UHGV virus genome: UHGV-0098481
Strand: one strand, 5' to 3'
DNA length: 48,822 nucleotides
Origin: a virus
Below are positions 5,880 through 47,785 of this stretch, piece after piece (the first letter of the stretch is position 1; the number at the start of each line of letters is the position of its first letter). A program made the position numbers and the translations under genes. The notes below the pieces were generated by a model that was not told where the DNA came from, did no database searches, and was given only the letters and a program-made list of their open reading frames with translations.

Positions 5880-5912
5880 CATTAAAAATCATATTGGAGC
5901 TTCCCTCATAAA
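5880..5912. terminator. Inverted-repeat hairpin just after the effector gene stop, possible terminator for convergent genes
   Basis: tattggagctt...aagctccaata inverted repeat with A/T-rich flanks; no clean U-tract on the plus strand. Confidence 0.3.
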
Positions 5913-6348
5913 GCTCCAATATAAAACACCATCATTTCAATAGTACCTGCAGCTAATTAAAACTAGTCAACCGAAAACATTAATCACTTTAAACTTTAGT
6001 ATGCACTTATACTTTCTTAATAATAGAAAAACACTTACAAATAAATTAATCATGTCAATCTCCGTAACTACAACCTCGGAAAGTATGTAAACAGGAATCA
6101 TTACTGAAAAAAACACGATTTCAGCAGAATTCTAGAAATATCCTGTGCTGCTGCCGATACCAACTTTCGTATATACTACCCTTCACGTTCCTTCTCGTTT
6201 TTATAAAACTATTCATTTATAACTATCAATAGGCATCATAACCAATGTAAGTGTAAGTACTGGTGAACGAGTGTCAATGGAGTTAAAAGTATCACTTCAT
6301 CCTGCTAAATATAAGTTATCCTACGTTTTAATATACTAGAACTCAAAA

Positions 6349-7314: not shown

Positions 7315-7415
7315 AAGTATCTCTTTTTAGATAAAATTGGATTTCGACAAGTAGACGTTGATAACAACAAGACTGGTTAGATAATTTAATCATTGATGCA
7401 ACGTTTAGCGTTGAA

Positions 7416-8600: not shown

Positions 8601-8764
8601 TGGGGGCATCTCCCTGGACCGAACACAGAATGCCCCCACTTATGCCCCCAACTGCGACTTGATTTCGGTTGAGTCCAGTTGATAACAGGAGATAAGATAC
8701 GGGCCAGAAACCGCAGTATACGGGCTTTTAGTTGATTTCGGTAGACTTGGGAAGAGTTTGAAAT

Positions 8765-8810
8765 GGTGCCGATAATAGGAGTCGAACCTACGACCTTCGC
8801 ATTACGAATC
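8765..8810 (-). repeat. 46-nt 3' fragment of tRNA-Thr (anticodon loop CGT, T-arm GGTTCGA, CCA end); attachment-site core
   Basis: Reverse complement reads ATTCGTAATGCGAAGGTCGTAGGTTCGACTCCTATTATCGGCACCA; sequence 5' of this (8811 onward) does not continue a tRNA, so it is a partial att copy and not a gene. Confidence 0.8.
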
Positions 8811-9094
8811 TGTAGCACCAATCATAACTATCTGTTTTAGCAAGCATTAACCGCATTCACTAAGCTATAGTTGATGGCACAAACAGAAAGCTGATGCATG
8901 ATGTTGTCATGTGTATGTCACAAATACGGCACAACGATCTTCAAACATGTAGCCACACATCCACAGAAGAGCACAACGCCTTGCAATCAAGTGCAAAGCT
9001 TTGTGTGCATCAGTTTTGTCTCATAGGTAATGAGGCTTTAACTGCGATGCAGTAATACATACTAAAATTTACTTAAAATTCATAAATACACCAG

Positions 9095-21331: not shown

Positions 21332-22591
21332 TTACTGCCCGGCAATAACGATGCCCGTATATTCAGGAACAAGTACAGAGCAGCCGTACAGAGTGGTGAA
21401 ACGCGCAGTGGTTACGCCTTTGATGTGGTCGAAGGCGTAAGACATGATCAGCGTAGCGCCCTGCTCGGTGGTTGCCGTCATTACCTGTGGACCCTGACCA
21501 GTCGGGAACGCCAGTTTGCCGTACATCAGCTCAACAGAACCATCAGCCCAGAACAGGTTAGCAGGTGCTGCGTTCTTGTTGAGAATGGTGATTGCTGCAG
21601 TTTCTGCCGGCTTGGCATCGACGTTTGCATATGGACGGCTCGCAACATCGGCATTTCCAACAGGGAGAATCTTTGGAGAGATTGTTACGGTGGTTCCTGC
21701 TGTGTCTACTGCCAGAACGCGGAATACCTGCGGCTGCCCGGTGGTATCTTTGGTGATCTGGTGTACGGAATTCACACCTGCGATGGTAAACGCATCGCCA
21801 ACCTGCAAGCCTTTAGCAGATACCGTAATGGTCCCCTGTCGGTTATCAACAGGCATGCCATTTGAATCTTTCGCTTCAACCTTGTGTTCAGGTTGATTTG
21901 ATACTGTCAAGGTTTCAGTGCTTCCTGCCGGTAATCGACCGGAAATATCGGTCTTGTAGCTATCAAAGGAAGCAACCGGAGGGATCTGCGCTTTTTCGTA
22001 TGCTGTCAGGGTTGCGCCCTGAGCGTAGGCACGGTGACCAAGCTCGCCAGCAAGGTCTTTGTAGTTGAATGGGTCCCAGAAAGAGCGACGGTTGATACCC
22101 TGAGGTACACCAATCGCCGTCATGGTGGCATCAATATCTGCCGCACCATTCCACAAGGCAAGGCCCCGTGAGCCATTTTCTGAGGCAGGAATTGCGACCA
22201 CGTTAGTAGCACGCTGCGTAACCATGGAAATCAGGTCAGAGTCAATCTGTGCAGCAAGGCGCATACCTGCAGCGCGACCAGCTTCAGTTTTATGTTCCGG
22301 GTCACGCATTTCACGCGCATCCAGAGTGTACAGTATGTTTTTCGGCTCCTTGAACACAGAAGGAACAAGGCGCTGAACCAGTGCTGTTGGCGTTTTGCCG
22401 CTGAGGTCTAGGCCTTCCTCAATGTTCATGTGGTAATGCTGCGGACGATACAGAACATCACCTGCTCGCTGCATTGCTGTATCACCGGGACGGAATTTTT
22501 TAGCGTTACGGGAAACTACGCAGGCGGCCTCAAAGCCTTCAACGTAGTTTTCGAACATGATTTCAAGGTCTTTTGCTAATTGGTTAGTCAT
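21332..22591 (-). CDS. Major coat protein (P22/Sf6-like)
   Basis: 419 aa, synteny after scaffold; HK97-fold coat of P22-like phages by position and size. Confidence 0.85.
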   Translation of the reverse strand: MTNQLAKDLEIMFENYVEGFEAACVVSRNAKKFRPGDTAMQRAGDVLYRPQHYHMNIEEGLDLSGKTPTALVQRLVPSVFKEPKNILYTLDAREMRDPEHKTEAGRAAGMRLAAQIDSDLISMVTQRATNVVAIPASENGSRGLALWNGAADIDATMTAIGVPQGINRRSFWDPFNYKDLAGELGHRAYAQGATLTAYEKAQIPPVASFDSYKTDISGRLPAGSTETLTVSNQPEHKVEAKDSNGMPVDNRQGTITVSAKGLQVGDAFTIAGVNSVHQITKDTTGQPQVFRVLAVDTAGTTVTISPKILPVGNADVASRPYANVDAKPAETAAITILNKNAAPANLFWADGSVELMYGKLAFPTGQGPQVMTATTEQGATLIMSYAFDHIKGVTTARFTTLYGCSVLVPEYTGIVIAGQ

Positions 22592-22609
22592 GCTTAATGC
22601 TCCGATAGG

Positions 22610-23503
22610 TTATTTTTTTGCCTTTTTAGCGGCGAAATACGGCGTCCAGTCACCAGTTTCCAGCGCCTTGGCTTTCAGTTTGTCGAGGTTATTGATTACT
22701 GCGCCGTTGCTCCCCTTAACTGTCGGGGTTGTGGCTGCCGTGGTTTTTGCTTTTGGCATGATTCTGGCCTTAGATTCGATACGTTCCAGCAGACGACCAA
22801 TTGCTACGGGGTTGGTAGCTTCTGCCAGTTGCTTGCGCAGTTCAGCGTTGCGACCAAGCGCCAGAACAACGATTTCCGGCTTCTCTGACTCAAGAAGGAT
22901 CATGTCCTGAATATGAACAGGAACATCTTCGCGTACAGCCTGCTCTGCATCCTGGTAGCCAGCCACTTTCAGTGCTTTTACTCTCTGCATGTAATTGGCT
23001 GCTTTCTGCTGAAGCGTTGCGGTACGCGCCTCTTCCTCTCGTTTCCGCTCTCGTACTTGCTCCTGGTATTTGCCGTTTTCCTCTGCCCACTTAGCCATAC
23101 GTTGCTGATAGATTTCTTCATCGAAACCGATGTCCTCATCATCCAGTTTTGGCATTCGCGGTGGTTGAGTGATTACCGGCTGCTGCTCGACGGGTTTCTG
23201 AGACTGACGCATCAGCTCTTTCAGCTCGCGGTCTTTCTCTTTAATCGTCTTGCGCAGGTGTTTTACCAGTCCATGCTCTGCGCCATCTTCGCTGGTTGGC
23301 GAATCCAGCTTTTCGTCACCAAAGTAGAATTCCTGTTCTGATTCGTCGTCATCAGTTTCAGTGGCTTCCTCTGCATCATCGCCGGAGGACTCTCTGCCAT
23401 CTTCTGTTTCGACTTCTTCAGCCAGTTCGACATCATCAGGAATCTGCTCTGACGCGTCGGTTTCGATTTCAACTTCTGGTGTGTTTTCTGCCATCTGGTC
23501 CAT
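22610..23503 (-). CDS. Scaffolding protein
   Basis: 297 aa, highly acidic N-terminus, charged helical composition, position between portal and coat. Confidence 0.8.
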   Translation of the reverse strand: MDQMAENTPEVEIETDASEQIPDDVELAEEVETEDGRESSGDDAEEATETDDDESEQEFYFGDEKLDSPTSEDGAEHGLVKHLRKTIKEKDRELKELMRQSQKPVEQQPVITQPPRMPKLDDEDIGFDEEIYQQRMAKWAEENGKYQEQVRERKREEEARTATLQQKAANYMQRVKALKVAGYQDAEQAVREDVPVHIQDMILLESEKPEIVVLALGRNAELRKQLAEATNPVAIGRLLERIESKARIMPKAKTTAATTPTVKGSNGAVINNLDKLKAKALETGDWTPYFAAKKAKK

Positions 23504-23593
23504 TTGTTACCCCTGTTTACTCGATGTTCAGCCCATCGGAAGGCAATAGGGTGCCAGGCCTCATAAAGACAGCCATTGCACGTTATGGGTTAA

Positions 23594-25792
23594 TTACTGC
23601 TGTGGTTGTTGCTGAGTTGATTTTTGCAGGATGCTGCTGATGTCCATGCGCTGCGCATGGCCCTGTGCCTGACTTTTCAGGACAAGCTCTGCATCAGCAC
23701 GGGCATTATCTCCTTGCTGTTGCTGGAACTGTCCGAGCAGTTTCAGCGCCTCACGGATGTCAGATTTTTGCTGGCTATCGGCAGATGCGAGGATTTTCAC
23801 AACATTTGCCGCAGCAACCTGAGCATCCGTCTGTGCCTGGAATGCTTTAACCTGAATGGCTGCTTGTTCGTTCTGCGCTTTCTGCAATTCAGCCTGACCA
23901 GCAAGAAGCTGACCTTGCGCAGCAACCATAGCCGGATCTGGCTGACTGGCCTGTTGTCGTTTCGCCTGCTCAACCATTTGCTGTTCTTCAGGCGTTCTCG
24001 GCTTGATAACGCCAGACAGAAGCAACTGATTGCGGTTGTATTCTTTAAGGTCGTCCATCCCTTCGCCGTCCATATTGTCGAGAATCATCGACGATACAAG
24101 GTCGTGCTTCGGCGTCCCTGGCGGGATAAGTGCCAGCATGGAAAGTAACGACTTAACCGTTGCATCACGGCGAGTAGCGAACGACTGACCGACATCGACA
24201 GTCACTTCATAGTTGCCCTGCGAAAGGTCATTAAGCGCGATAACCTGCCCTGTCTGACGGTCAACAACTTCACCAGTCATCAGCGCCACGTCATCGCTGC
24301 CGTCCTCATTAACGATACGCATCGGCGTATCACTGCCATAGACCTCACGCGCCATAGAAAGCCACACGACGCCAGCGCGGCGCATGGATTTAGCCATGTT
24401 GTCCATGTAGATATAGGACTGCGTATCCATCCGGTTAAAAATGCTATCAACGGTATCGGTGGCGACGTTGCTCGGCATGTTCTCAAGCTGCGACGCACCT
24501 GTAATTTGCTGAATAGCCGTTCCGGTGTACTGCAATAGCCCGGCAAGAGCTGGCGGCATTTGTGTCGGAGGTGTATAACTGCTGACCTGAGCCTGCGCAG
24601 TAATATCTCCGTTTTTGTTTTTCAGACTGACCATCGGCAGGAACGCCGGGCGCTTTTTGTTGCGCTCCGCCCAATGAGTGGCAAGAGGACCAGGAATCAT
24701 GTCAACATCAACTACAGGAATGCCATCACCGCCAGCCTGAGTAGCGTTATCTGCAATCATGGAAACCATCAGGTTCTCAAGACGCTGTGCATCCATCGCT
24801 TTTGCTGCGTGGCCTTCTATTCGCTCCTGATTATCAACAAATGAGCGACGCCCATATACCGGGATGAGAGGAATATGTTCGCCCGGAATACGCTTCGGTT
24901 CTTCCAGCCATTCAGCGCCAGACAGAAGACCGCAATAAACTCTGCGTTTCTTCACTGTCCGCTCACCAATCAGTTCGAATGCGCCATCGGTCAGCTCGTC
25001 GACAATATCTTTGATTTGCTCTTCATCATAGATTGCCGTTTCTCCGCTGACAGGGTTACGCCACGCCGTGAGCTTCACCTTCTCTATGCGAACTTCGTAG
25101 TAGCGTCCAACATAGATGGCATCGGGCGTTGACCAGTCATATTGAGTGCCAGTGTCATCACGAGAAAGGCTTGCCGCGATGGAATCAGGGTATTCAGCCT
25201 CGAACGCTTTAGGCGTCATGGAGAACATTTCCATAGCCCACATAGCATCAGAACGGTCATATTGCTTGCTGTCCTGATCGAAGAAGACGCATGTCGCTGG
25301 GTCGTAAACAGGAAGAAGGCTGATGCGTCGCTGCTCGTTACTCGGATCCATTTCATCTTCGTAATCGGCACACATGCGGAAACAACCGAATCCGCCCGTT
25401 ACAGCATCATCAAATGCGTTATCACACGCTTCACCACCGGATGTTTCCTGATAATCAGCGCGGAATTTGCCGTTCATCTTTTCGGCTAACGCTTCCGATG
25501 CCTTATCGTCCTTCGGCCTGAATTTAACGCTGATGCGATTCTGCCGATACTCGCCAATGATGCGATCGCATTCACGGGCAATCTTATTCAGTTCAAAGCG
25601 CGGATAATGCTCAAACCTGCCTTCATCAAATGAGTAACCAGCGTTTGTGCTGCCTTCCCACTGTGCGCCGGATACCCGGACGAAACGTTGAGCCTCAATA
25701 ATCTGCTCGCGCATATCCTGCGTTGCTGACCAGGCATTATCAAAGTTGCACAGCACCTTGCGATGCCAGTCAGTCATCTTTTTTTCTGCCAT
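23594..25792 (-). CDS. Portal protein (P22 gp1-like)
   Basis: 732 aa; conserved core (…RRRVY…GEHIPLIPV…) and Gln-rich C-terminal barrel region typical of P22-like portals. Confidence 0.9.
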   Translation of the reverse strand: MAEKKMTDWHRKVLCNFDNAWSATQDMREQIIEAQRFVRVSGAQWEGSTNAGYSFDEGRFEHYPRFELNKIARECDRIIGEYRQNRISVKFRPKDDKASEALAEKMNGKFRADYQETSGGEACDNAFDDAVTGGFGCFRMCADYEDEMDPSNEQRRISLLPVYDPATCVFFDQDSKQYDRSDAMWAMEMFSMTPKAFEAEYPDSIAASLSRDDTGTQYDWSTPDAIYVGRYYEVRIEKVKLTAWRNPVSGETAIYDEEQIKDIVDELTDGAFELIGERTVKKRRVYCGLLSGAEWLEEPKRIPGEHIPLIPVYGRRSFVDNQERIEGHAAKAMDAQRLENLMVSMIADNATQAGGDGIPVVDVDMIPGPLATHWAERNKKRPAFLPMVSLKNKNGDITAQAQVSSYTPPTQMPPALAGLLQYTGTAIQQITGASQLENMPSNVATDTVDSIFNRMDTQSYIYMDNMAKSMRRAGVVWLSMAREVYGSDTPMRIVNEDGSDDVALMTGEVVDRQTGQVIALNDLSQGNYEVTVDVGQSFATRRDATVKSLLSMLALIPPGTPKHDLVSSMILDNMDGEGMDDLKEYNRNQLLLSGVIKPRTPEEQQMVEQAKRQQASQPDPAMVAAQGQLLAGQAELQKAQNEQAAIQVKAFQAQTDAQVAAANVVKILASADSQQKSDIREALKLLGQFQQQQGDNARADAELVLKSQAQGHAQRMDISSILQKSTQQQPQQ

Positions 25793-25793
25793 A

Positions 25794-27209
25794 TCAACCT
25801 ACACCACAAGGAATTGAGTAACTGGAATAGTCGGGTTGCGCAGCCGACTCCGGGCAATGCATACACATCATCAGCGCATCAGCCAGGTTAGGAGATGGAA
25901 TACCGAGCTTCTGCTTCATTTCGACCTTAGTCATTAGCTCCAGCTTCCCGTTGTTATTGAATTTGCGCTGAATCTGCGTCAGCTCTGCAAACAGCTTCTC
26001 CAGCATCTTCTCGCCTATCGCTTCTTTGTCGAAACTCAGCATGTCGTCGGGGTCTGCATACTCACCGTGGACAACCGCCCGATATGTCAGATACAACCTG
26101 TCAGCCAGCGCGTAATAGAATTGCGCTCGCTTATTGCGGAACACATCGCCAATAGTGCGAACGTTGTCGCCCTGCACGACTTCATCAGCCCATGCTCCAG
26201 CCTGATATGGTGCATCTTCATCAAATGGCGATTCGCTGCCCTTGAACATCGTGGCGGTGATTTTCTTGCCGGAGAATGCTTCCGTTGTCTGTCTGCGTAG
26301 CCCTGCACCGACACCATCGCCATCCCACAGGTAATGGTCAGCGCCGTCTTCAATCGCCAGCGAAGTAGCCCAGTCAGCACCCTCGTTGATGTCCATCAGC
26401 AGACCTTCGGCAATGCGCTTAACTACCGAACCGTGACGCGATGCATAACCTTTAGCATCTGGCCCTGTATCTGACGGGTCATGTGCAGAAACAACAGCGC
26501 CTTTCGCTTTCCATCCGAGTTTCTTGTGCGCATCGGTTGCAGCTTCAAGCCATTCACGTTTGATGATTGCCATATCACTTGCGCTTACCGGCTCACCAAG
26601 CCAGATGTGACGATACAGTGTCGGATTTCTGCGTTTGCACTCTTCCATCTCCAGACGGAGAACTTCAGGAAAGTGCGGGTTGTCGGTGTAGTTCACCGTC
26701 AGCAGACAAATATCATCAGGAGGATTTACGACGAATCGCTGATAGGTATCGTCGAGGATGTTCTTCGGGTTAAAGCTCACCCATATTTCAGAGAACGGCT
26801 TACGGATGGTTGGTATCAGGATATCCCATGATTCCTTCGTTACCGCCTCCGCTTCTTCCACCCAGCAGATATCAATGCCTTCGAGCGATTTAATCTTCGT
26901 CGGGTTGTTTTTGATGCCGTAGAACATGAACTCAGCATTCGTTCCGAGATGACGAATCATGGAACGCTGAATTTCAAACTCAGCCGAATACCCTTCCCGC
27001 TCTATGGTGTCTTCAAGCAACCGGATTACCGAATCGCTGATACTGTTTTGCAGTTCACGAGCGCAAAGAATACGCACAGGCTGCCGACGCGCCGCTTCAA
27101 CAAGCAGCCTCGCAATTGCCCATGATTTACCGCTACCTCGACCGCCTTTGGCGACTTTGTAGCGATGCGCCTTAATGAACGGTTCAAAGATAGGATTAAT
27201 CGAGGTCAT
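25794..27209 (-). CDS. Terminase large subunit (P22 gp2-like)
   Basis: 471 aa; Walker A KGGRGSGKS; near-identical to P22/Sf6 large terminase as remembered. Confidence 0.9.
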   Translation of the reverse strand: MTSINPIFEPFIKAHRYKVAKGGRGSGKSWAIARLLVEAARRQPVRILCARELQNSISDSVIRLLEDTIEREGYSAEFEIQRSMIRHLGTNAEFMFYGIKNNPTKIKSLEGIDICWVEEAEAVTKESWDILIPTIRKPFSEIWVSFNPKNILDDTYQRFVVNPPDDICLLTVNYTDNPHFPEVLRLEMEECKRRNPTLYRHIWLGEPVSASDMAIIKREWLEAATDAHKKLGWKAKGAVVSAHDPSDTGPDAKGYASRHGSVVKRIAEGLLMDINEGADWATSLAIEDGADHYLWDGDGVGAGLRRQTTEAFSGKKITATMFKGSESPFDEDAPYQAGAWADEVVQGDNVRTIGDVFRNKRAQFYYALADRLYLTYRAVVHGEYADPDDMLSFDKEAIGEKMLEKLFAELTQIQRKFNNNGKLELMTKVEMKQKLGIPSPNLADALMMCMHCPESAAQPDYSSYSIPCGVG

Positions 27210-27646
27210 TTTCCGAATAGAGTGCTCATCGGTGATGTTTCAATCTGGATTGCGCCGCCGTCTTTGCCTGTTAGCTCGTGATCAACCTTGTCGCGCCATT
27301 TATCCTTCTGTCGGTTCTTAAGCCAGAAGATGGCAGCTGTTGTATCAGGAGGGTAATACTTCTCAAGCGGAGTTTCGACAATTCTGTTTTCAATAACACG
27401 AATATCGATGTCTGGAGCCACGAAGCCCATAGCGCGTTGATAAAGACGGTCACTAACTTCTGCATCAGCGACGGCCTTACCCTTTTTTATGGACTCCGAA
27501 AACTTAGGATAATCAAGCTTCCACTTGTTAATAGTTGACTCACTGACTTCAAAGAAATCAGCAAGTTCTGCATCGGTGTAGCCCAGCAAGCACAGTTTGC
27601 GTGCCTGTTCGGCATACGCCTCTTGATACTTTGTTGGGCGCGCCAT
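27206..27646 (-). CDS. Terminase small subunit (Sf6 gp1-like)
   Basis: 146 aa; N-terminal HTH, C-terminus ...LTGKDGGAIQIETSPMSTLFGK matches Sf6-type small terminase; overlaps large terminase start. Confidence 0.85.
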   Translation of the reverse strand: MARPTKYQEAYAEQARKLCLLGYTDAELADFFEVSESTINKWKLDYPKFSESIKKGKAVADAEVSDRLYQRAMGFVAPDIDIRVIENRIVETPLEKYYPPDTTAAIFWLKNRQKDKWRDKVDHELTGKDGGAIQIETSPMSTLFGK

Positions 27647-27648
27647 GT

Positions 27649-27891
27649 TTATGCTCCGGTGGTGAACAGGTCTAACGCTTCCTTCGATTTACGCACCGCT
27701 TCGATAGTGCGGGTCGTGATATCTGAATTAGCGCCACCTGACTGGAAGTGAATTTTGAATAGCTCAAGCTTCAGTTCGTCAGTGCCAATGAATTGAAATG
27801 CTTCTTCTGCGGCTGCGTTCCGGTTCATGACCAGTTTGTAAATCTCTAACTGGAATTTCTGTTCTTCAGTCATGGGAATAATCTCTGCCAT
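27649..27891 (-). CDS. Hypothetical protein upstream of terminase
   Basis: 80-aa ORF, co-directional, 2-nt gap to the small terminase gene. Confidence 0.5.
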   Translation of the reverse strand: MAEIIPMTEEQKFQLEIYKLVMNRNAAAEEAFQFIGTDELKLELFKIHFQSGGANSDITTRTIEAVRKSKEALDLFTTGA

Positions 27892-28185
27892 TGTTGGCTC
27901 CGTTTATCCGTTAAAAGGGATATCAGTTAAGTTATCCCGTGTAGGGTATAAGCCATTGTCGAGACCACTCATTGAATGGTCTCTGCAATAACCGATGTCT
28001 TTCCATCAGTCCGCCACCACAAAGAATCTTTTTTGCCATAAGGCAGGAGGTTCATCTTTCAGTGGCTGCCAGTGTTATTTCCCCACTTTCTGGCTTGGGT
28101 TGTTTCGCTGTACTGCCGTAACTGGTTTCCCAGAATAAATTCCGGTTTCATTATCAAGCCCACCCGTAGATGGGCTTTGTAATGG

Positions 28186-28473
28186 CTACTTCTTCAGAAC
28201 TGATTCGATGAATTCACGTCGGGGATGACGATAGTTCAGAATATCTTCTGGCATCCTCATAAAGCGGTTGTTGCCGTCTTTGGCAGTAACAAAACAGCTG
28301 TGAACTCCGCAGACATCCGTTTTGATTGTGTCGCTATACTCAAAAAGCAACTGAGCCATCTTCTCTTGCCATTCTGGCGGCATAGCCTCCATGAATACTC
28401 GCGGCATCACGCAGAACGGCGCATGCGTAAGACCAAACCACAGTTGCAGGTCTTTACGATATTCTTCATCCAT
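28186..28473 (-). CDS. Hypothetical protein
   Basis: ORF 28186-28593, start at internal MDEEYRKD with SD-like AAAGG upstream. Confidence 0.45.
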   Translation of the reverse strand: MDEEYRKDLQLWFGLTHAPFCVMPRVFMEAMPPEWQEKMAQLLFEYSDTIKTDVCGVHSCFVTAKDGNNRFMRMPEDILNYRHPRREFIESVLKK

Positions 28474-28692
28474 CGTCTTTACCTTTGTTGCAATAAAAAG
28501 CCCCGCAAATGCGAGGCTAAATCCTGGTATTTGTAATGAACTGGCTCTTATCTCAACGCAGCCCCTTACTGCGCGCCAGATGCTCAATATCAAGCATCAG
28601 CAATGAGATGTTTAATCTGGATTCACTCCAGAAGTGATCACCACCCTGTCTACAGAGCCAGATGTGAAGGATGATGAGTAAAATTATCGCTA

Positions 28693-29130
28693 TCATCGAA
28701 GGCATTGCGTCCTGATGTATTCCTGCAGGTAGTTAACCTGCGCGGTTATCCTGTCGATTCCACTTCTGAGACGGTAATAATTGAGTTCAGCATCTGCTGT
28801 AAGTCTTGGGCTTTCTCCATCGCCCATGCTGCTGGCTCCGGTCGTTGACTTTGCACAGGTGGCGGCGACTTGCAGGCGCTTACGACCAGCAGAAACATCA
28901 GCACGGAGACTTTCGATAGTCGCGTTAGCATCAGCAAGCTCCTTTGTGTATCTGGCGTCAAGTTCTGCTACATCACGTTGACGCTTCTGCATGTCAGCGA
29001 TTGTGGATGTGGCCTTATCGCGCTGCTCTTTGTAGGCGATTGCATTATCACGGTAATGATTAACAGCCCATGACAGGCAGACGATGATGCAGATAACCAG
29101 AGCGGAGATAATCGCGGTGACTCTGCTCAT
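28693..29130 (-). CDS. Rz: Spanin, inner-membrane subunit Rz
   Basis: Near-identical to lambda Rz as remembered; N-terminal TM. Confidence 0.9.
28746..28931 (-). CDS. Rz1: Spanin, outer-membrane lipoprotein Rz1 (embedded in Rz, +1 frame)
   Basis: Embedded ORF with lipoprotein signal ending VVSAC and Pro-rich mature part; start chosen at MLTRLSKV. Confidence 0.7.
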
Positions 29131-29603
29131 ACCTCAATCTCTCTGACCGTTCCGCCTGCTTCTTTGAATTTTGCAATCAGGTTGTCAGCCTTATGCTCGA
29201 ACTGACCATAACCAGCGCCCGGCAGTGAAGCCCAGATATTGCTGCAACGGTCGATTGCCTGACGGATATCACCGCGATCAATCATCGGCAAAGCGCCACG
29301 CTCCTTAATCTGCTGCAATGCAACAGCATCCTGGCTTTTAGGAGAGAAGTCTTTCAGGCCAAGCTGCTTACGGTAGGCGTCCCACCAACGGGAAAGAAGC
29401 TGGTAACGTCCGGCAGCTGTTGATTTGAGTTTGGGGTTTAGCGTGACAAGTTTGCGAGGGTGATCTGAGTAATCAGTGAATAGCTCTCCGCCAACAATGA
29501 CGTCATAACCATGATTTCTGGTTTTCTGACGTCCGTTATCAGTTCCCTCTGACCACGCCAGCATATCGAGGAACGCCTTACGTTGATTATTGATTTCCAC
29601 CAT
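29127..29603 (-). CDS. R: Endolysin R (lytic transglycosylase)
   Basis: 158 aa, matches lambda R as remembered ([26 protein letters not shown]...). Confidence 0.9.
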
Positions 29604-29910
29604 CTTCTACTCCGGCTTTTTTAGCAGCGAAGCGTTTGATAAGCGAACCAATCGAGTCAGTACCGATGTAGCCAATGAACACGCTCGTTATATAAGCGAG
29701 ATTGCTACTTAGTCCGGCGAAGTCGAGAAGGTCACGAATGAACCAGGCGATAATGGCGCACATCGTTGCGTCGATTACTGTTTTTGTAAACGCACCGCCA
29801 TTATATCTGCCGCGAAGGTACGCCATTGCAAACGCAAGGATTGCCCCGATGCCTTGTTCCTTTGCCGCGAGAATGGCGGCTAACAGGTCATGTTTTTCTG
29901 GCATCTTCAT
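29587..29910 (-). CDS. S: Holin S (dual-start S107/S105)
   Basis: 107 aa, matches lambda S ([20 protein letters not shown]...). Confidence 0.9.
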
Positions 29911-30505
29911 GTCTTACCCACAATAAGGGGATTTGCTCTATTTAATTAGGAATAAGGTCGATTACTGATAGAACAAATCCAGGCTACTGTGTTTAGTAAT
30001 CAGATTTGTTCGTGACCGATATGCACGGGCAAAACGGCATGAGGTTGTTAGCGCAACCTCCTGCCACCGCTTTCACGAAGGTCATGTGTAGAAAGACGCA
30101 GCATAACTATCACTGATGAATTCAGGATAGCCAGTGGCTACGGCTCAGGTTGGGTTGTGGCGGTCGGTGCTGAACTCCGACTTAATGACGATAGGCGTGT
30201 ACCGACGCCTCGTTTTACTTCCTCCGCTTTCACGGCTTCACCCTAGACCAGCTTTACGAAATCCTCGTAAACCTAACCGCGGCAGATATGACCGGCACGG
30301 TGTGCCATATCACGGACCGGCGGGTGTCTCGTTCACCTGATTAACGCATCAGCCTGCGTATTCACCACAACGATAAGAGCACTGCGCGGCACCTTTCACC
30401 AATTCCGCGAGGTCTGCGGGTTCAATGCTCTTACCTGTTGTGCAAACAAAAAAGCCACCGTTGCAACTTAAGAGTCACTAACGGCAGCTTACCCTCTAAT
30501 TATGG
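29911..30505 (-). promoter_or_regulatory. Late promoter/antitermination region between Q-like gene and holin
   Basis: Minus strand just downstream of the Q-like stop has TTGACA-18 nt-CATAAT, followed by a GC-rich segment and T-run; exact qut/terminator not resolved. Confidence 0.35.
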
Positions 30506-31024
30506 CTAAATGGCTAATTGCATGTCAAGGCTTTTAACAGCAACATGCTTAACTTTCTCAACACGTTTACGCATTTTGAAAGCATTTTGCATTGGTTGGT
30601 ACAAAACAAATAATGACGCTTTCAGGATATCGTCAATTTCGTTTCTACAGGTTGCCAGTGAAGGTTTTCTCCATCCCTCGCCACCGCGTCCACACATCTT
30701 GCGTGGCTTTGCAGTCGCGTGATAGTAGGATGCAATTGCTCTCTTAGATGAACCATGAGCGTAGTAGCTGAGGAGGATGCCAAAGGCTTTCTTGTCAATG
30801 TACATGACGGAATCGACGACCTGAGAAATCAACATTCCATCATCATCATTACACATTGGCCTTGTCATAATTCTTCCCGGCTCTACGCTCTCCATGAACT
30901 TCGCTATTACGCTGCTCATGCGCTTTTCCAGACGACCTGAATAAACCCATGCGCCCCACAGTTCAAGCCAGCCATTCAGCCACTCGTGCTGCTCTTTGGT
31001 GAGGTTTAGTTCTCTTATGCTCAT
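30506..31024 (-). CDS. Late-gene antiterminator Q (QuuD/phage 21-82 type, not lambda Q)
   Basis: 172 aa; LELWGAW...CNDDDGMLIS...LLSYYAHG resembles QuuD-family Q; position between ninH and lysis genes. Confidence 0.7.
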   Translation of the reverse strand: MSIRELNLTKEQHEWLNGWLELWGAWVYSGRLEKRMSSVIAKFMESVEPGRIMTRPMCNDDDGMLISQVVDSVMYIDKKAFGILLSYYAHGSSKRAIASYYHATAKPRKMCGRGGEGWRKPSLATCRNEIDDILKASLFVLYQPMQNAFKMRKRVEKVKHVAVKSLDMQLAI

Positions 31025-31209
31025 CGTCTTCCCCTCTTGCCTTGTTTGACCATCAGGACGCCGTTAACTATTACGTGACGCTCGCCTTTGCTGTCTCGGT
31101 TGTACTTGAGCACTGTTCCTCTTGCGCAGGAAAGCATCCTCGCCACTTCGGTCTGATTGCCTCGTGTCTGGATAAGAAGCTCTGGTATCGTTTGAATTGT
31201 GGCGTTCAT
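31021..31209 (-). CDS. ninH: NinH-like protein
   Basis: 62 aa; ...YGNQTEVARMLSCARGTVLKY... resembles lambda NinH. Confidence 0.7.
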   Translation of the reverse strand: MNATIQTIPELLIQTRGNQTEVARMLSCARGTVLKYNRDSKGERHVIVNGVLMVKQGKRGRR

Positions 31210-31568
31210 GCGTTCTCCAGTTCGGTGATTTTTATTCCAAGCCGTCCGCCTGGTACTTTCACACCACGAATTACGCGAATGTCATCGAATTGCTCGTCGT
31301 CTTCCGCAAATCCGGCGTGGATAAGGGAGTCGAGTAAACCTTTCAGGATGTTGTCGAGGTCGCGGCGGCGGGAGTCTGGAACGTCTGCGATGACTTTGAT
31401 GCGGAGTCGTGATTTGGTGAAAATGTCTAACTTGAGTTGGTGGATGATTTGCTGAACGTCTTTTCGGTATTTCTGGCCTTTATCGCTGATGTAGTATTGG
31501 CTTCCCCGTCTTCGCCAGTAGGTATTCACCGACGGCGGATATGGAAGCACAAACTGATATTCTTTCAT
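31206..31568 (-). CDS. rusA: Holliday junction resolvase RusA
   Basis: 120 aa; ...RRRDLDN...GGRL...I.ELE.. signature of RusA. Confidence 0.85.
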   Translation of the reverse strand: MKEYQFVLPYPPSVNTYWRRRGSQYYISDKGQKYRKDVQQIIHQLKLDIFTKSRLRIKVIADVPDSRRRDLDNILKGLLDSLIHAGFAEDDEQFDDIRVIRGVKVPGGRLGIKITELENA

Positions 31569-31855
31569 GGCTTAATCTTCCCCTCCTTCAGCAGTATCGC
31601 CTGCGTCCTGATCACGCCTTCGAGGTGGTAAAGTCTGGCGTCTTTGTTGTCGAGATTATGGGTGCGTCGGTCGATTTCATCGTGACACGCGCTACAAGCC
31701 CATGCGCCGATCAGGTCGTCAGGCTTCATTCCCGTTCCACAAATTCCAGCCATCCGGTAATGTGCCAGAACTGTAGTTTCAGGGTTGCCATTGCATACGC
31801 CGTAAATACGTACCTGGCATTCTCTGCCGCGCGCTTCTTTGCGTAGGTTAGCCAT
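31565..31855 (-). CDS. YbcO/NinX-like protein (DUF1364)
   Basis: 96 aa; MANLRKEARGRECQVRIYGVCNGNPETTVLAH...CSACHDEIDRR matches DLP12 YbcO as remembered. Confidence 0.75.
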   Translation of the reverse strand: MANLRKEARGRECQVRIYGVCNGNPETTVLAHYRMAGICGTGMKPDDLIGAWACSACHDEIDRRTHNLDNKDARLYHLEGVIRTQAILLKEGKIKP

Positions 31856-32576
31856 TAAGCAGCCTCCCCTGTTACTTTCAGCATTCCGTTATCGAGCAGC
31901 TTTCTGGTCAGCCACTGTTGACCACGCCCGGTTATTTTTGTGGTGAACGATATCTGTATTCCGTGATTTGTGTTGACCGCTGTTTCTTTCACTGTGAAAT
32001 AGCCGCGATCCATATATTCCTGCATTGGCACATTGCGCCGGGAACCTGAAGCAATAAGGATTTTGTGATCACGCATCCACGCAAACAGTTTGTTTGGACC
32101 AATACCGACAACCTTTGCAAAGTTTCCAATCAAAATTCCGCTGGCCTCGCCAACGCGATCGGCAAACTCAACTTTAGGTGCGGCAATTGCGAGCTGGTTT
32201 TCCAGCTGCATTTTCTGCTCAGCAAGATCAGCAGCAAGGCGCAACGCTTCCGGTAGCGTTTTGGGGATATTAACCGCAGCTTCTTCAAGCTCTCGCCAAC
32301 GGTCAACAAGGCGAGCGGTGAACTCTGGCGACAACTGGGCAACAACAACAATACTATCTCGCTTACCTTGTTCGCCTTCGAAGACGTAATGCTCGTACTG
32401 AACATTGAACCTAAGTTATTGATTCTTTCGGAAACCTCAATTTGAGGAAGCCGGATAACACCATTTTTAGCCAGCGTTTCGATGGTACGTTTCACATTGT
32501 CATGACGCTTACCCACCAACTCAGCGATTTCAATGCTTGTCATTTTGATGGCATTGCCATTTATTAACTCATTCAT
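31855..32576 (-). pseudogene. Rha-family regulatory protein, interrupted by a -1 frameshift near 32408-32411
   Basis: N-terminal Rha domain in ORF 32130-32576 runs into nonsense after ...RINNLG; correct continuation (FNVQYEHYVFEGEQG...SPEFTARLVDRW...) is in the frame of ORF 31855-32334; consistent with loss of one T in GGTTTC. Confidence 0.65.
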
Positions 32577-32739
32577 CGTCTTCTTCCTCGTACATTGAGC
32601 TATTCGGATCGCTCATCAGCTCTGCGCAGCAATCGGAGCACACGTGAACTTCCAGCATATGCAGCTTCTGACCGCAGTTAGCGCACGTTAAAGCCCGCTC
32701 GACGCTTTCTTGTTCGTAACTTCGATTTGGGTCAATCAC
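32569..32739 (-). CDS. ninF: NinF-like protein
   Basis: 56-aa ORF (GTG start overlapping ninE stop): [34 protein letters not shown]...[20 protein letters not shown], close to lambda NinF as remembered. Confidence 0.65.
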
Positions 32740-32918
32740 CTTGTATTCCTCGCACGTTCTCTAAGCCACCTGATATCCCACAGGTGAGCTGTGTAATTGA
32801 AGGTTTTTACGTCAGATTCTTTTGGGATTGGCTTGCGTTTATTTCTGGAGCGTTTCGTTGGAAGGTATTTGCAGTTTTCACAGATTATGTCGGTGATACT
32901 TCGTCGCTGTCTCGCCAC
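32736..32918 (-). CDS. ninE: NinE-like protein
   Basis: 60 aa, GTG start; [19 protein letters not shown]...[20 protein letters not shown] matches lambda NinE. Confidence 0.8.
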
Positions 32919-33058
32919 ACGTCCTCCTTTTCCTGCGGTAGTGGTAACACCCCTGTTGGTGTTCTTTCACACCGGAGACACCATCGATTCCAGTAAGGTT
33001 GATTTGGTCGGAAGCGGTTATCTTCTTTGCATTCACCGCACCGATAACATCGCATCAT
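32885..33058 (-). CDS. ninD: NinD-like zinc-ribbon protein
   Basis: 57-aa ORF below the track cutoff: [16 protein letters not shown]...; ATG overlaps ninC stop (ATGA). Confidence 0.65.
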
Positions 33059-33927
33059 GCAGCTTCCCTCCCGAAGTCGAAATCAAGCTGCCCTCCAAAT
33101 ATTTCGCATGACTCAGAACAAGAGCCGGTATCGAATCTTTTAGCTCGTACCATGTCCTGATACAGGGCTTGATAATCATTTTCTGAATACATTTTCGCGA
33201 TACCGTCCAGCGACATTCTTCCTCGGTACATAATCTCTTTTGGCGTTTCCCGATGTCCGTCACGCACATGGGATCCCGTGATGACCTCATTAAAAACACG
33301 CTGCAATCCCTCCTCATCTTTGCAGGCAAGTCCGATTTTTTGCGTTGATTTTTTAATGCAGAATATGCAGTTACCGAGATGTTCCGGTATTTGCAAATCG
33401 AATGGTTGTTGCTTCCACCATGCGAGGATATCTTCCTTCTCAAAGTCTGACAGTTCAGCAAGATATCTGATTCCAGGCTTTGGCTTTAGCCGCTTCGGTT
33501 CATCAGCTCTGATGCCAATCCACGTGGTGTAATTCCCTCGCCCGAAATGGTCATCACAGTATTTGGTGAAGGGAACGAGTTTTAATCTGTCAGTGCAGAA
33601 CGCGCCGCCGACGTATGGAGTGCCATATTTCTTTACCATATCGATAAATGGCTTCAGAACAGGCATTCGCGTCTGAATATCCTTTGGTTCCCATACCGTA
33701 TAACCATTTGGCTGTCCAAGCTCCGGGTTGATATCAACCTGCAATACGGTGAGCGGTATATCCCAGAACTTCACAACTTCCCTGACAAACCGATATGTCA
33801 TTGGATGTTCACAACCTGTATCCATGAAAACGTAATGCACGTCTTTACCTGCCCGTCGCTTTTGCTCCATTAGCCAGAGCAAATATGCTGACGTCCTGCC
33901 ACCGGAGAAACTAACGACATTTATCAT
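33055..33927 (-). CDS. ninC: NinC (PAPS-reductase-like fold)
   Basis: Start at [17 protein letters not shown] (PP-loop SGGxxS); matches lambda NinC as remembered; overlaps ninB stop. Confidence 0.85.
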
Positions 33928-34364
33928 GCAGCCCTGTCTCCCCATCTCGCTTTCCACTCCAGAGCCAGTCGCGCTTCGTCTGACCACTTAACGCCACGCT
34001 CTGTACCGAATGCCTGTATAAGCTCTAATAGCTCCGCAAATTCGTTTACACGCATCCTGCTGGTTGACTGTCCTATTACCACAAAGCCATTCCCGGCAAG
34101 GTTAGGAACAACGTCCTGCTGCTTTAATGCTGCGGTAAACACACACTTCCAGCTTTCTGCATCCAGCCAGCGACCATGCCATTCAACCTGACGCGAAACG
34201 TCACCAAGGCAAGCCCAAAGCTTCCGATTTTGGTCTAAGCTGCGGTTGCGTTCCTGAATGGTTACTACGATTGGTTTGGTTGGGTCTGGAAGAATTTGCT
34301 GTACCGCGTGAATAGCGTTTTGCTGATGTGCTGGAGATCGAATTTCAAAGGTTAGTTTTTTCAT
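33924..34364 (-). CDS. ninB: NinB (Orf recombination mediator)
   Basis: Start at MKKLTFEIRSPAHQQNAIHAVQQILPD; matches lambda NinB. Confidence 0.9.
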   Translation of the reverse strand: MKKLTFEIRSPAHQQNAIHAVQQILPDPTKPIVVTIQERNRSLDQNRKLWACLGDVSRQVEWHGRWLDAESWKCVFTAALKQQDVVPNLAGNGFVVIGQSTSRMRVNEFAELLELIQAFGTERGVKWSDEARLALEWKARWGDRAA

Positions 34365-34441
34365 GACTTCCCTCTCCCCCAAATAAAAAGGCCTGCGATT
34401 ACCAGCAGGCCTGTTATTAACTCAGTGATGTAGATGGTCAT

Positions 34442-36322
34442 TTAATACTCCGTCACGTTTTCCTGTCGCCACGCCTCGTCATATTCCGATTTCGGCATAT
34501 TGGCGATGTAGCTATATGGCGATCCTGATTCAAGTTGCAGGAACTGGTGCGATTGCTCGTCAAGGAACAACGGGACACCACCTTCCCAACCTTCGCCGTT
34601 ACGTTGTTTTTCAAGCATCAAAACAGATGCCGGAGATGCCAGTAGCTGTTCGTCCTTCTCTGACATCTTTTCACCACTCTGAACTCTCTGTAACGCTCTC
34701 TCGCGAGCCTTGTTACGCCAGATGATGAAAAGGTTGTCTGTTAGGTCTGTTATCGCTCCAGAGCCTTTTACGTCCATTTTCCCGGTTGGTTTTTCTTCGC
34801 TGTCTCCTTTTCGCGAGTGAGTAACGAGAATGACGTGGGAGTTTGTTTTGTTTTTGAAGTCGCAAATCGAGTCAACAAACGCCTTCTGCCCGTTATAGTC
34901 ATCGTCGCCTATGCCACATTTCATCAGGCTGTCGATGATGAATAACTGGATCCCGTATCGGCGGCGAGCGTAGTCGAATATTTCGATCAGCCTGTCGGCT
35001 TTCGCCGTTCCGGTCAGGCCAAACACCCAAAGTCTTTCGTCATAAAATTTAAATGCAGAGTCAATTTCCAGCACTGGCGGCATCTTGCAGCACGTCGCCT
35101 GACGGGTAAGTCGCTTAAGGAGAATGCCTGGCTTCAGCTCAAGTGATGCAATGCAGGTCTTTACACCCTGACGCATTGCCTCAAGTGCCATATGCCCGAC
35201 AACCTCCGTTTTTCCGTGACCGTTCACACCATTGACCAGCGTCAACTCGGCCTCACGGAACTGGAATTTATCTGCCAGAGATTCCCACGGTGGATTAAAC
35301 AGATATTGCTGCTTGCCGTAGAAAGCGTTGATAGTGTCCTGGTAAAACTCTCGCGCGCTGTAGAGTTCTTCAGGGTCGAAGTAGGATGCCGTGCCGATGT
35401 ACTGCCAGATTTCATCCTCGGTAACACCGTTCATCAGGCATTCGTTGATGTCTTTGTACGGCAGAGTAACAAGACGGCAACGATGTTCACCGAGTCGGCT
35501 TGCGATTTCCCTTGCGGCTTCACGACCAACATCATCAACATCCATCGAGATGAATATTTCCTCAAACCTGTCGAGGTTGTGATACTCAAACTCAATCCAC
35601 TGTTGCTTAGCGCCTTTCCCGCCACCAAACGGCACGGATAACGCCGAGATGCCGTATTGCGCATAGCTCATACAATCAATTTCGCCTTCGCAAAGTACAA
35701 CCGCCCTCACGCCAGCGTCCAGAGCCTGCCATCCGAACAGACAAGGTTCGCAATCACCTTCTGCCATAATGACTTTCTTCCCGTCCGGGCGCTCAGTGCT
35801 GATTCGCTTGACCTGCAACAACTCACCATCGCGTTTGTACGGAAGCACCAGAGCATCCAGTTCTCGTTCTCCATTCCACACCTTTCCGCTGACAACCTCG
35901 TAGCGCTTTACGACTTCTGGCGATATGCCACGCGATTGCAGGTACTCAAGATGGGATTCTGTTCTGGTAACGTAGCGGGCGATTTTCTTGCGATCAGGTC
36001 TGGAGAATTTCTTCTCACGTTTGGCATCGAAATGGTGATCGTCATCCTTGATACCGAGAAATGCTTTCGCTTCCTGCATAGCCTGATGCAGGTTAATTCC
36101 ACGACATGCCATCCACAAATCAAGCATGTCACCGCCGTCTCCCTCAGCGAAATCAGCCCATTTTTTCTTGCCGCTAAGGTTGACCTTAAGGCTGTTTCCC
36201 TTGTCACCGTTGACGTTACCGGCAACCCACTCATGCCCCTCTTTCTTGCCGTTTGGCAACAGGTGCGGAGCCACCCTGTCAACCTGCGCCCAAAGCAGGT
36301 TGCTAAGTTCACTTGGCCTCAT
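34442..36322 (-). CDS. Bifunctional primase-helicase (toprim primase N-terminus, SF4 DnaB-like helicase C-terminus)
   Basis: 626 aa; C-terminal Walker A GVNGHGKT and helicase motifs; position downstream of O-like gene. Confidence 0.75.
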   Translation of the reverse strand: MRPSELSNLLWAQVDRVAPHLLPNGKKEGHEWVAGNVNGDKGNSLKVNLSGKKKWADFAEGDGGDMLDLWMACRGINLHQAMQEAKAFLGIKDDDHHFDAKREKKFSRPDRKKIARYVTRTESHLEYLQSRGISPEVVKRYEVVSGKVWNGERELDALVLPYKRDGELLQVKRISTERPDGKKVIMAEGDCEPCLFGWQALDAGVRAVVLCEGEIDCMSYAQYGISALSVPFGGGKGAKQQWIEFEYHNLDRFEEIFISMDVDDVGREAAREIASRLGEHRCRLVTLPYKDINECLMNGVTEDEIWQYIGTASYFDPEELYSAREFYQDTINAFYGKQQYLFNPPWESLADKFQFREAELTLVNGVNGHGKTEVVGHMALEAMRQGVKTCIASLELKPGILLKRLTRQATCCKMPPVLEIDSAFKFYDERLWVFGLTGTAKADRLIEIFDYARRRYGIQLFIIDSLMKCGIGDDDYNGQKAFVDSICDFKNKTNSHVILVTHSRKGDSEEKPTGKMDVKGSGAITDLTDNLFIIWRNKARERALQRVQSGEKMSEKDEQLLASPASVLMLEKQRNGEGWEGGVPLFLDEQSHQFLQLESGSPYSYIANMPKSEYDEAWRQENVTEY

Positions 36323-36429
36323 GATTCCCTCAGATTGAGATTTTTAAACCAGAAATCGACAAACGAAATACTTAACCAGCCGTGGTTATAACCAGCGACC
36401 AGTAGCGATTTGATTTTTGATTTCATGGT

Positions 36430-37290
36430 TCACCTGTCGAAAAACACGTAGCCAGTTTTCGATACGGTGATTGCGGATGATGGTTTGGATTGTGGTTGAA
36501 TGGTTTCTGGCTTTTCGTCGTTCCAGCGCTGACCGTTCAGGTAGCTCGATGGTAACAACCTGTCGAATCCGAACTGCTTACCATTCCTGCATGCGATGTC
36601 TTCTGCCAGCATCGTGGCAAACTCGCTTGCCGTACCCCTTGTAGTTTTACGCCATTCCCTGAACTGTGTTCTGAATGCCGAAGCCGCGTTTTTCTTCCCG
36701 GCTTTCCGCATGCCTGCACACCAGAATATTTCCTCGAATGCCTTGTCGGTTTCTTCGTGACGGTCAGGTGATTTTTCACACTCCGTCCGAACACTTTCGG
36801 ACATAGTGTTTTTATTATTTCTTTTTTCTTTTGTAATAGTTTCTTTTGTGTGTCCCTGTTTTGGTGACAGCGCTGTCACCGTTTTGGTGACACTTTTTGT
36901 CACCAATGCAGTGACATTATCACCAGAGTAGTGACACCCTTCGATTTGCCATTCTTCGATGTTCTTGTTAGGACCGATTTGCTGGCCTTCGCGAAGGATA
37001 ACCTTCATCGCGATAAGCTCATTCTTGGCCTTGTTTACCTTCTGTCTTGGCAGCCTGGTAATTTGAGCTAACTGACTATCAGAGATGCGATCCATCTTTT
37101 TACCGTAGCCGTATGTTTTACGGCATATGGCGTGGGCAACCTTGCTCTGATTTTTCGTTAAATCTGCGCCGATAAGCTCTTCATACAGGGCATTTGCAAG
37201 ACGGGTATAACCATCTTCAACTTCTGCCACACGACGCTCCACAGGCCGTTGTGAAGGCCTTAAATGTGTTACGGTTGCAAGATTACTCAT
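36430..37290 (-). CDS. Replication initiator, lambda O-like
   Basis: 286 aa; N-terminal ...[14 protein letters not shown]...[10 protein letters not shown]... and C-terminal ...[41 protein letters not shown].. match lambda O as remembered; internal iterons. Confidence 0.8.
36808..36940. repeat. Origin of replication: AT-rich tract plus GGTGACA/TGTCACC iterons inside the O-like gene
   Basis: Five or more copies of the GTGACA/TGTCAC motif at ~36858-36940 next to an AT-rich stretch (36808-36840), as in lambdoid ori. Confidence 0.6.
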
Positions 37291-39339: not shown

Positions 39340-39606
39340 ATGTCAGATAACACTATTAAAATCATACCTCAGCACATGACCGCCACATCAGTTCTTATTA
39401 CGCCTGATCGTGCTGAAACAATCATTACTTTTTACCGCCATGAATTTGAGCATCACATGCAGTCTGATGAGCAAGGAAATAATAGCTTCCAAGTAAAAGT
39501 TGAGTTGACCCCTAACATGTCAGTCTCAATGAGCCCGGATCAAGCTGTTGCATTAGTAAAATCATTACAGGTAGCTCTCAGGGATAATGGGCTATGGAAA
39601 GACTGA
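39340..39606 (+). CDS. Hypothetical protein (88 aa) in the rexAB-equivalent position
   Basis: ORF 39199-39606, start chosen at MSDNTIKII with AAGGA upstream. Confidence 0.45.
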   Translation: MSDNTIKIIPQHMTATSVLITPDRAETIITFYRHEFEHHMQSDEQGNNSFQVKVELTPNMSVSMSPDQAVALVKSLQVALRDNGLWKD

Positions 39607-40244
39607 AGCCAGTTTCTTCAGTTCAACCTACCTCAGGAACAACATCATCAGTTCTTCCAAGTATTATAGTTAGTGCAACCCTAGCAGCGACAACCGTTTC
39701 TCCTTATGGGGATCCATCTCAGTACCAAAGTATTGGTATTGATGCTAAGGTATCAAATAGAGTTTCATACGCCATGGACGAAACGGGTTTGCGCCCAAGT
39801 AAGGAAGATGTAGCGATGAAGAGTGATACCCTGGAGGTAAGCGTGAGCGGAATGTCCAGAGAAGAACTTGACGCAAAGCTTTCACAAAACAAATCAGAGG
39901 TAGAGTCTATTGCTGCGGAAATGCGTCGCGAATCAGCTGACTTTAAAACCTATTATACTCAGCAATTTTCTTCTATTGAGAGAGGTATTGCTGAAATTAA
40001 AGGTGAAATCGGCGGTTTGAAAACGGGACTTACAACGACTCAGTGGGCGATGGCCGTTGGCTTGACTTTAGTTACTGTGATTCTGTCTGGCGTGATGTTA
40101 GCCTCAAGTTGGATTATCTCCGGCAATGACAAGTCACCATCAGTAACCAGCCCGGCTCCAATTATAATACAGGTACCGACACAGCAACCATTAACGAGCG
40201 CTCCAACTAACCAATCGTCATCACAACAAGCTCCTAAGCAATAA
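39594..40244 (+). CDS. Hypothetical coiled-coil protein with C-terminal TM helix
   Basis: 216 aa; central heptad-like region, TM segment WAMAVGLTLVTVILSGVMLASSWII, Ser/Pro/Gln-rich tail; start uncertain. Confidence 0.55.
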   Translation: MERLKPVSSVQPTSGTTSSVLPSIIVSATLAATTVSPYGDPSQYQSIGIDAKVSNRVSYAMDETGLRPSKEDVAMKSDTLEVSVSGMSREELDAKLSQNKSEVESIAAEMRRESADFKTYYTQQFSSIERGIAEIKGEIGGLKTGLTTTQWAMAVGLTLVTVILSGVMLASSWIISGNDKSPSVTSPAPIIIQVPTQQPLTSAPTNQSSSQQAPKQ

Positions 40245-40737: not shown

Positions 40738-41121
40738 ATGACACGCAGAACTCAGTTCAAAGGCAATTCACGTTCTCGTCGTCGTGAGCGTTTAAAGGCA
40801 AAGGCATTAGCTAACGGCGTACTGGCCCGCGAAGAAGCAATAAGTTCAGAAGTATTACACCGCCCTACTCTAAGCAGAGCGCAGATTCAGGCTAAAGGTA
40901 CTCACGAAACGCCTGAGCGCATAGAAGACGCTAAGCCAATTAAGTTCATGGCACAGGACGTGATCTGGCAACAGAAAGAATACAGACGCAATCTGGAGAG
41001 AGCGGCCATTGTGTACGCGAATGAGTTTGGGCATAGGCAACCAGAAACTGGTGTATGTCTTCCAAATGTAGCTCTTTACGCGGCAGGCTACAGGAAATCA
41101 AAACAACTGACAGCAAGGTGA
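40738..41121 (+). CDS. N-type antiterminator (P22 gp24-like)
   Basis: AGGAGG 7 nt upstream; arginine-rich motif RSRRRERLKAKA near N-terminus; C-terminus ...LPNVALYAAGYRKSKQLTAR resembles P22 gp24. Confidence 0.7.
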   Translation: MTRRTQFKGNSRSRRRERLKAKALANGVLAREEAISSEVLHRPTLSRAQIQAKGTHETPERIEDAKPIKFMAQDVIWQQKEYRRNLERAAIVYANEFGHRQPETGVCLPNVALYAAGYRKSKQLTAR

Positions 41122-47437: not shown

Positions 47438-47785
47438 GTGGAAGAAGAAATCTTCACTCGTGAAGAGGCAGCATCGTATCTGAAGGTAGACAAAGGCACT
47501 ATCACGCAGTGGATACGAAGTGGACGACTTCAGGCCGCAAAGATAAATCCAGATAAACCTAAAAGCCCATATCGCATTTGCAAGTCAGACTGCATTGCGG
47601 CGCTTAAGTCTGTAAGACACAATAGCGCGGTGAATGCGGTTGATGTGCAGGAGGTTAAAGCATGTCAATCAAACTACGCGGTGGCACGTGGCACTGTGAT
47701 TTCGTCGCGCCAGATGGATCAAGAGTTAGACGCTCTCTTGAAACATCGGACAAAAGGCAAGCGCAAGAACTTCACGATCGTCTGA
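47438..47785 (+). CDS. xis: Excisionase (HTH, AlpA/Xis family)
   Basis: 115 aa; ...FTREEAASYLKVDKGTITQWIRSGRL... HTH; 3' end overlaps int start. Confidence 0.7.
   Translation: MEEEIFTREEAASYLKVDKGTITQWIRSGRLQAAKINPDKPKSPYRICKSDCIAALKSVRHNSAVNAVDVQEVKACQSNYAVARGTVISSRQMDQELDALLKHRTKGKRKNFTIV

Follow-up and report, generated by a model that had tools for sequence, protein, structure and literature searches.

Why does a gene of an otherwise complete-looking temperate phage lie in two different reading frames? The window analysed here is a 48,822-nt stretch of viral DNA (UHGV-0098481), and positions given without further qualification refer to it. The gene, roi, occupies 31855–32576 on the minus strand and has 722 nt, not 723 nt. 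Once repaired, it encodes a Phage_pRha domain and an ANT/KilAC domain. Sequence comparison indicates that roi very probably carries a genuine, heritable one-base deletion of single origin, and that it is probably a recent null allele of an accessory gene of a P22-like prophage.

The roi locus and the surrounding prophage

The ORF map places the roi start codon (ATG) at 32576 and the natural stop codon (TAA) at 31857–31855, on the minus strand. The ORF encoded from this start (32130–32576, minus) has 148 aa: 56 native residues (MNELING...RINNLG) followed by 92 out-of-frame residues, a low-complexity nonsense sequence that runs to a stop codon at 32130. The rest of Roi, residues 57–240, lies in the -1 frame, which is open from 32415 to 31855 (minus), reads LRFNVQYEHYVFEGEQGKRD... 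as far as the natural stop codon and encodes the remaining half of the Rha domain, followed by the linker and the ANT/KilAC domain. From 32415 the sequence of this frame is LRFNVQYEHYVFEGEQGKRDSIVVVAQLSPEF..., ending at the TAA at 31857–31855. The first start codon in it is a TTG at 32334, which gives an ORF of 159 aa. The bases that remain at the lesion are GG (32411–32410) and TT (32409–32408) on the minus strand, and the deletion allele reads TTAGGTTC there. When one base is added at codon 56 (TTA-GG-TTC), a 240-aa ORF results, and its product is 100% identical to WP_001003984.1 (E. coli EC291 and 23CRST013). The coordinates, frames and repaired peptide given in the preliminary description were therefore correct.

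The neighbours are those of a standard nin region, in the order ninB, PAPS reductase gene, ninD, ninE, ninF, roi, ybcO, rusA, ninH and Q. The stop codon of ninF (32569–32739, minus) overlaps the roi start codon (ATGAATGA). On the other side is a ybcO-like gene for a putative nuclease (DUF1364; 31565–31855, minus; PF07102, 150 bits). Its ATG overlaps the natural roi stop codon (TAATG), and it has its own Shine-Dalgarno motif, GGGGAGG.

With 100% query coverage, the 722 nt were 98.9%, 97.9% and 98.1% identical to the annotated roi genes of HK140, HK620 and CUS-3, respectively. The nucleotide identity was approximately 97% to Stx phages and approximately 91% (90.8%) to HK022. Full-length roi matches were present in about 975 of 5,426 complete E. 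coli genomes. The repaired protein matched PHROG 63, 'anti-repressor Ant', at 1e-99, and a PDB sequence search with it returned no match at E ≤ 1. It matched Pfam PF09669 (Phage_pRha) at residues 12–99 with 36.7 bits, above the gathering score of 29.9. The encoded 148-aa ORF reached 28.4 bits, below that score, and covered profile positions 1–27 of 91 only. The ANT/KilAC domain (PF03374, residues 126–228; gathering score 25.3) scored 113.5 bits in the repaired protein and 114.6 bits in the 159-aa ORF. Both domains had been described as intact; this holds for the C-terminal KilAC domain (126–228) and not for the N-terminal Rha domain (12–99), which is split after residue 56, so that the break falls in the middle of a domain rather than between the two domains. 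Because the repaired protein missed the NCBIfam cut-off for the Rha family (TIGR02681; 17.9 against 45.95 bits), 'Rha-domain-containing Roi' is a more accurate label than 'Rha'. The uninterrupted ORF of about 240 aa that characterizes the roi group is replaced in the window by ORFs of 148 and 159 aa in different frames. The window gene is a pseudogene member of the lambdoid/P22-like roi orthologue group.

The prophage otherwise looks complete. It carries int, N (127 aa), cI, cro, cII, replication genes, Q, a lysis cassette and the terminase, together with genes for a 732-aa portal, a scaffold, a coat protein and a tailspike with a P22 head-binding domain, and its nearest phage is CUS-3. The 127-aa ORF at 40738–41121 (plus strand) gave a full-length match to Pfam N_peptide with 57.8 bits. 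The N region of the E. coli strain CS5L, whose prophage is compared with the window below, is identical to that of the window, and PGAP gives there only a 69-nt pseudogene, 'incomplete antitermination protein'. The short feature probably reflects the annotation and not a defect in N. Between cI and N, at 39340–40244 (plus), are two genes of 88 aa (phrog_26809) and 216 aa (phrog_5820), in the position occupied by rexAB or sieB in other lambdoid phages. PADLOC returned no match for either of them; the pair could be a superinfection-exclusion or defence cassette. The tailspike gene (9145–11850, minus) encodes 901 aa. Besides the P22 head-binding domain, the protein shows weak matches to the end of the endosialidase catalytic domain and to the Peptidase_S74 intramolecular chaperone, and it resembles that of CUS-3, which suggests a capsule-specific receptor-binding protein.

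Positions 1–8800 form a separate island outside the prophage, whose end is near 8809–9000. The island matches E. coli 23CRST013 and XH992 with 100% identity. It encodes part of an IS3-family transposase (1–523), a hypothetical protein of 1,091 aa, two small response regulators, a fragment of an alpha/beta hydrolase and, at 7416–8639, a second tyrosine integrase. The other end of the window, 48822, coincides exactly with the stop codon of the integrase ORF of the prophage (47662–48822; Pfam Phage_integrase), and the attachment site on the integrase side consequently lies outside the window.

The position and nature of the lost base

The window roi was aligned with nine other copies, three of them from phages and six close ones from E. 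coli. The alignment contained one gap only, at codon 56 (722 against 723 nt). The core of the earlier proposal, that a gene with a Rha domain was inactivated when a short homopolymer lost a single base, is right. The comparison with orthologues, which had been suggested as a check, gave the same answer: the intact gene has 723 nt in 214 phage records (726 nt in HK022 and HK542) and in the approximately 975 E. coli genomes with full-length matches, and the window copy is one base shorter at codon 56.

The missing base had been taken for a T from a T run. The loss of a single base stands, and its assignment to T is probably wrong. Eight of the nine comparators, including the three phages and the five closest copies (5–6 substitutions away), have TTA-GGG-TTC, and strain E4 (8 substitutions away) is the lone comparator with TTA-GGT-TTC. 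Across the complete E. coli genomes, the 62-mer with GGG was found exactly in 409 records and the 62-mer with GGT-TTC in approximately 7. The most parsimonious and most likely event is the loss of a G from the G3 run (C3 on the plus strand) of the Gly56 codon, and the GG at 32410–32411 (minus) would then be the remainder of an ancestral GGG. Loss of a T from a T3 run is possible but less likely. Intact roi alleles vary at the Gly56 codon (32409–32411), with 409 GGG records and about 7 GGT records, which leaves some uncertainty over which base was lost.

Apart from the indel, the window gene differed from the nearest intact alleles at 5 positions, and all 5 differences were synonymous. Since the repaired protein is the same as WP_001003984.1 and the differences are synonymous, the lesion looks young, although these two observations by themselves fit a mutation and an artefact equally. 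Of the explanations that had been offered, recent pseudogenisation is the one that is supported.

Recurrence of the deletion allele in other data

A sequencing or assembly error would mean that the true genome has GGG (or GGTTT) at this site and an intact roi. The lesion lies within a 3-base homopolymer, the rest of the gene is intact and differs only synonymously, and the published methods for CS5L are silent on how its complete assembly was closed (PMC11385413), all of which would suit an artefact. A 3-base run is, however, an atypical site for such an error, and 409 other genomes show GGG there. More importantly, the deletion recurs. E. coli CS5L (NZ_CP158311.1: 1939002–1939723, ABR757_RS09435) contains the same 722 nt with 100% identity and the same deletion, and PGAP labels this copy 'phage antirepressor KilAC domain-containing protein; frameshifted'.

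The CS5L prophage is not a duplicate of the window. The two have 26.4 kb in common at 99.9% identity, with 23 SNPs. The CS5L prophage is located at argW with intS/torI, whereas the window has a different integrase at 47662–48822. An IS3-family element interrupts the portal gene in CS5L (28528–29837 of the extracted locus L004), whereas the portal gene of the window is uninterrupted at the corresponding site (24050–24052, minus). An uninterrupted portal gene of 732 aa was also found in a contig identical to the window (L015). The replication-gene region holds 13 of the 23 SNPs within 1 kb (36011–36973), a pattern that looks like a recombination patch within an otherwise near-identical phage; 22104–34741 is identical in both.

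An exact-protein look-up found the 148-aa frameshift product on 4–7 public Logan/ENA contigs. Identity to the window is 100% over 20,447 nt in ERZ920153 (ENA; human gut metagenome run ERR1018284) and over 2,763 nt and 3,480 nt in the Logan assemblies SRR11392840 and DRR300785, respectively; the deletion is present in all three. One matching public assembly may be the source of the window itself, which would make the independent confirmations one fewer and still leave several. All carriers represent a single haplotype; one of its marks is a synonymous A at gene nt 645, absent from all nine intact comparators.

The roi deletion allele is rare. It was found in one of approximately 410 complete-genome copies with otherwise identical flanks, that is, in one of the 5,426 complete E. 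coli genomes. An exact search with a 35-mer of the deletion allele gave no match in IMG/VR, JGI metagenome contigs or GTDB representative genomes, and the two-frame arrangement was not found in any phage record examined. CM2 (NZ_CP158308.1), a sister strain from the CS5L study, was not among the roi or prophage matches listed. Over approximately 140 kb sampled, the CS5L annotation contained two 'frameshifted' features only, both in mobile DNA. This low number indicates that the CS5L assembly is not rich in indel errors, and there is no frameshift excess that would favour an artefact.

Because the same deletion and the same haplotype recur in independent data, namely the diverged CS5L copy (23 SNPs, an IS insertion and a different integrase) and at least three further assemblies from other sequencing runs, a sequencing error is effectively excluded. 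The homopolymer error that had been offered as an explanation is thus extremely improbable, and we regard the deletion as real.

A real deletion could still be overcome during expression. Full-length Roi would sometimes be rebuilt if ribosomes underwent a programmed -1 frameshift at the lesion or if transcription slipped there, since a -1 shift within the 2–3 codons around TTA-GGT would remake the native protein. Homopolymer slippage does occur in other phage genes. However, the slippery-site scan found no X-XXY-YYZ heptamer at TTA-GGT-TCA, where the longest run is 2 bases. The tRNA-Gly that decodes GGU would be unable to re-pair on AGG, and the GG/TT run is far too short for slippage of RNA polymerase. 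The two-frame arrangement is also not conserved, being confined to one haplotype and to one of about 410 comparable sites in complete genomes. Recoding at the roi lesion was rejected for these reasons (no slippery motif, runs of 2 nt, no conservation), and we consider it highly unlikely. The suggestion of a slippage-prone or phase-variable site finds no support either, for the same single haplotype and the same single occurrence. The gene contains a single canonical heptamer, C-CCA-AAA (32262–32268, minus; gene nt 312–318), which lies 48 codons into the nonsense frame and would leave the Rha domain broken. It is in phase with the frameshifted ORF, where it would lead into the KilAC frame, and out of phase in intact roi, and it was judged to be a chance occurrence.

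Predicted consequences of the deletion and relation to known systems

The preferred reading remains a true deletion in the nin region of a temperate phage resembling CUS-3 and HK620 (P22-like). One base pair would have been deleted once, most likely one G of the GGG at Gly56. Translation from the roi start codon is predicted to change frame midway through the Rha domain, a putative DNA-binding domain, and to end 92 nonsense residues later. The N-terminal product would consist of about half of the Rha domain and these 92 residues. The KilAC/ANT domain would be left without an efficient start, full-length Roi would not be made, and the allele would be null or nearly so. The internal-start scan of the roi gene found no Shine-Dalgarno motif upstream of the TTG at 32334 or of the ATG at residue 123, and independent expression of the KilAC half should accordingly be weak at best. 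Low-level expression of the C-terminal part is possible.

The intact ANT domain (114.6 bits) raises a different reading, in which the KilAC/ANT half is translated separately from an internal start and remains active, perhaps as an antirepressor, or in which loss of the Rha half was favoured by selection, Roi being harmful to lytic growth when IHF is scarce. HK022 Roi, in the title of Clerget and Boccard (1996) as cited in later papers, and Rha of phi80 and P22 (PMC4936722) are described as inhibiting the growth of phages on IHF mutants. Public contigs with an identical C-terminal 159-aa ORF show at least six different lesions upstream of residue 82, namely indels in the G3, A5 and A6 runs and three nonsense codons, and IS629 insertions in roi have been reported (PMC4587872). 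However, these contigs were looked up by the exact C-terminal ORF, so that N-terminal lesions alone could be found, and this ascertainment bias means that selection is not shown. The candidate internal starts, without Shine-Dalgarno motifs, also speak against this reading, as does the rarity of disrupted alleles in complete genomes (1 of about 410 at the window site and 1 of 168 at the A6 run described below). We therefore consider a functional split or a selected inactivation at this locus improbable. It is similarly doubtful that selection has repeatedly inactivated roi in E. coli prophages in general, with the KilAC half possibly made at a low level and acting alone; if this were true, the proposed cause would be that full-length Roi penalises lytic growth under limiting IHF. 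In this comparison, which covered roi itself, the rare disrupted alleles look like ordinary background decay.

Other lesions in the N-terminal part of roi, with the same 159-aa C-terminal ORF, were present on at least 24 contigs; in the Logan/ENA contigs examined as loci L017–L026, roi is at about 1257–1980 of each. They include nonsense codons at 50, 62 and 73 and the loss of an A from an A5 run (gene nt 109–113). In a variant N-terminal allele, an insertion that changes A6 to A7 was found in five different phage contexts. Of the complete E. coli genomes, 167 records had the intact A6 form and 1 (strain TB354) had A7. The A7 run as a conserved slippery site was rejected on these counts, which point to a mutational hotspot and not to programmed recoding.

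The nin region is classically non-essential, and transcription modified by N is resistant to Rho. Ribosomes would terminate 275 nt upstream of the ybcO-like gene, and the translational coupling through TAATG would be lost. Strong polarity on rusA-ninH-Q is not expected, and any polarity on ybcO-rusA-ninH-Q would be tolerated, because ybcO has its own Shine-Dalgarno motif and N-antiterminated transcription resists Rho. Since the nin region is non-essential and roi is disrupted by IS629 in Stx2a phages, roi is probably dispensable in this phage. In line with dispensability, the broken allele has not been lost and occurs today in several E. coli hosts and assemblies. The change looks like the loss of a single accessory gene rather than the general decay of a dead prophage.

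The locus should be annotated as a frameshifted roi pseudogene, neither as two hypothetical genes nor as an assembly error. The allele is a handy natural marker for one prophage lineage, and as a natural roi-null it could be compared with a repaired phage to study the function of Roi in P22-like phages. It is an ordinary pseudogene of an already known kind, as RefSeq flags the sister copy in CS5L, and it has little importance beyond annotation hygiene.

Compared with the Roi proteins of HK022, HK620, CUS-3 and Stx phages, the window gene is alike in nucleotide identity, synteny and, once repaired, the architecture of a Rha and a KilAC domain. The annotated phage roi copies examined were all intact, whereas that of the window is one base short at codon 56. 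HK022 Roi reportedly binds a DNA site within roi and is linked through IHF to the inhibition of lytic growth, in work ascribed to Clerget and Boccard in 1996. The Rha family was named after a function of phi80 and P22 that blocks growth on IHF-defective hosts (PMC4936722). The N-terminal domain (PF09669) is common to these proteins (Rha of phi80 and orf201 of P22) and the repaired window Roi; the window protein differs from Rha in its C-terminal KilAC/ANT domain, and is thus a Roi-type protein with a Rha domain and not a Rha orthologue. A comparable case is that of the Stx2a-converting phages of O157:H7 (sequence types PST1-3 and PST1-6), in which IS629 disrupts roi (PMC4587872). Because that disruption has already been described, it is neither new nor surprising that a lambdoid or P22-like prophage should lose roi. 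Both are natural losses of function in a lambdoid prophage; the lesion is an IS element in the Stx2a phages and a one-nucleotide deletion in the window.
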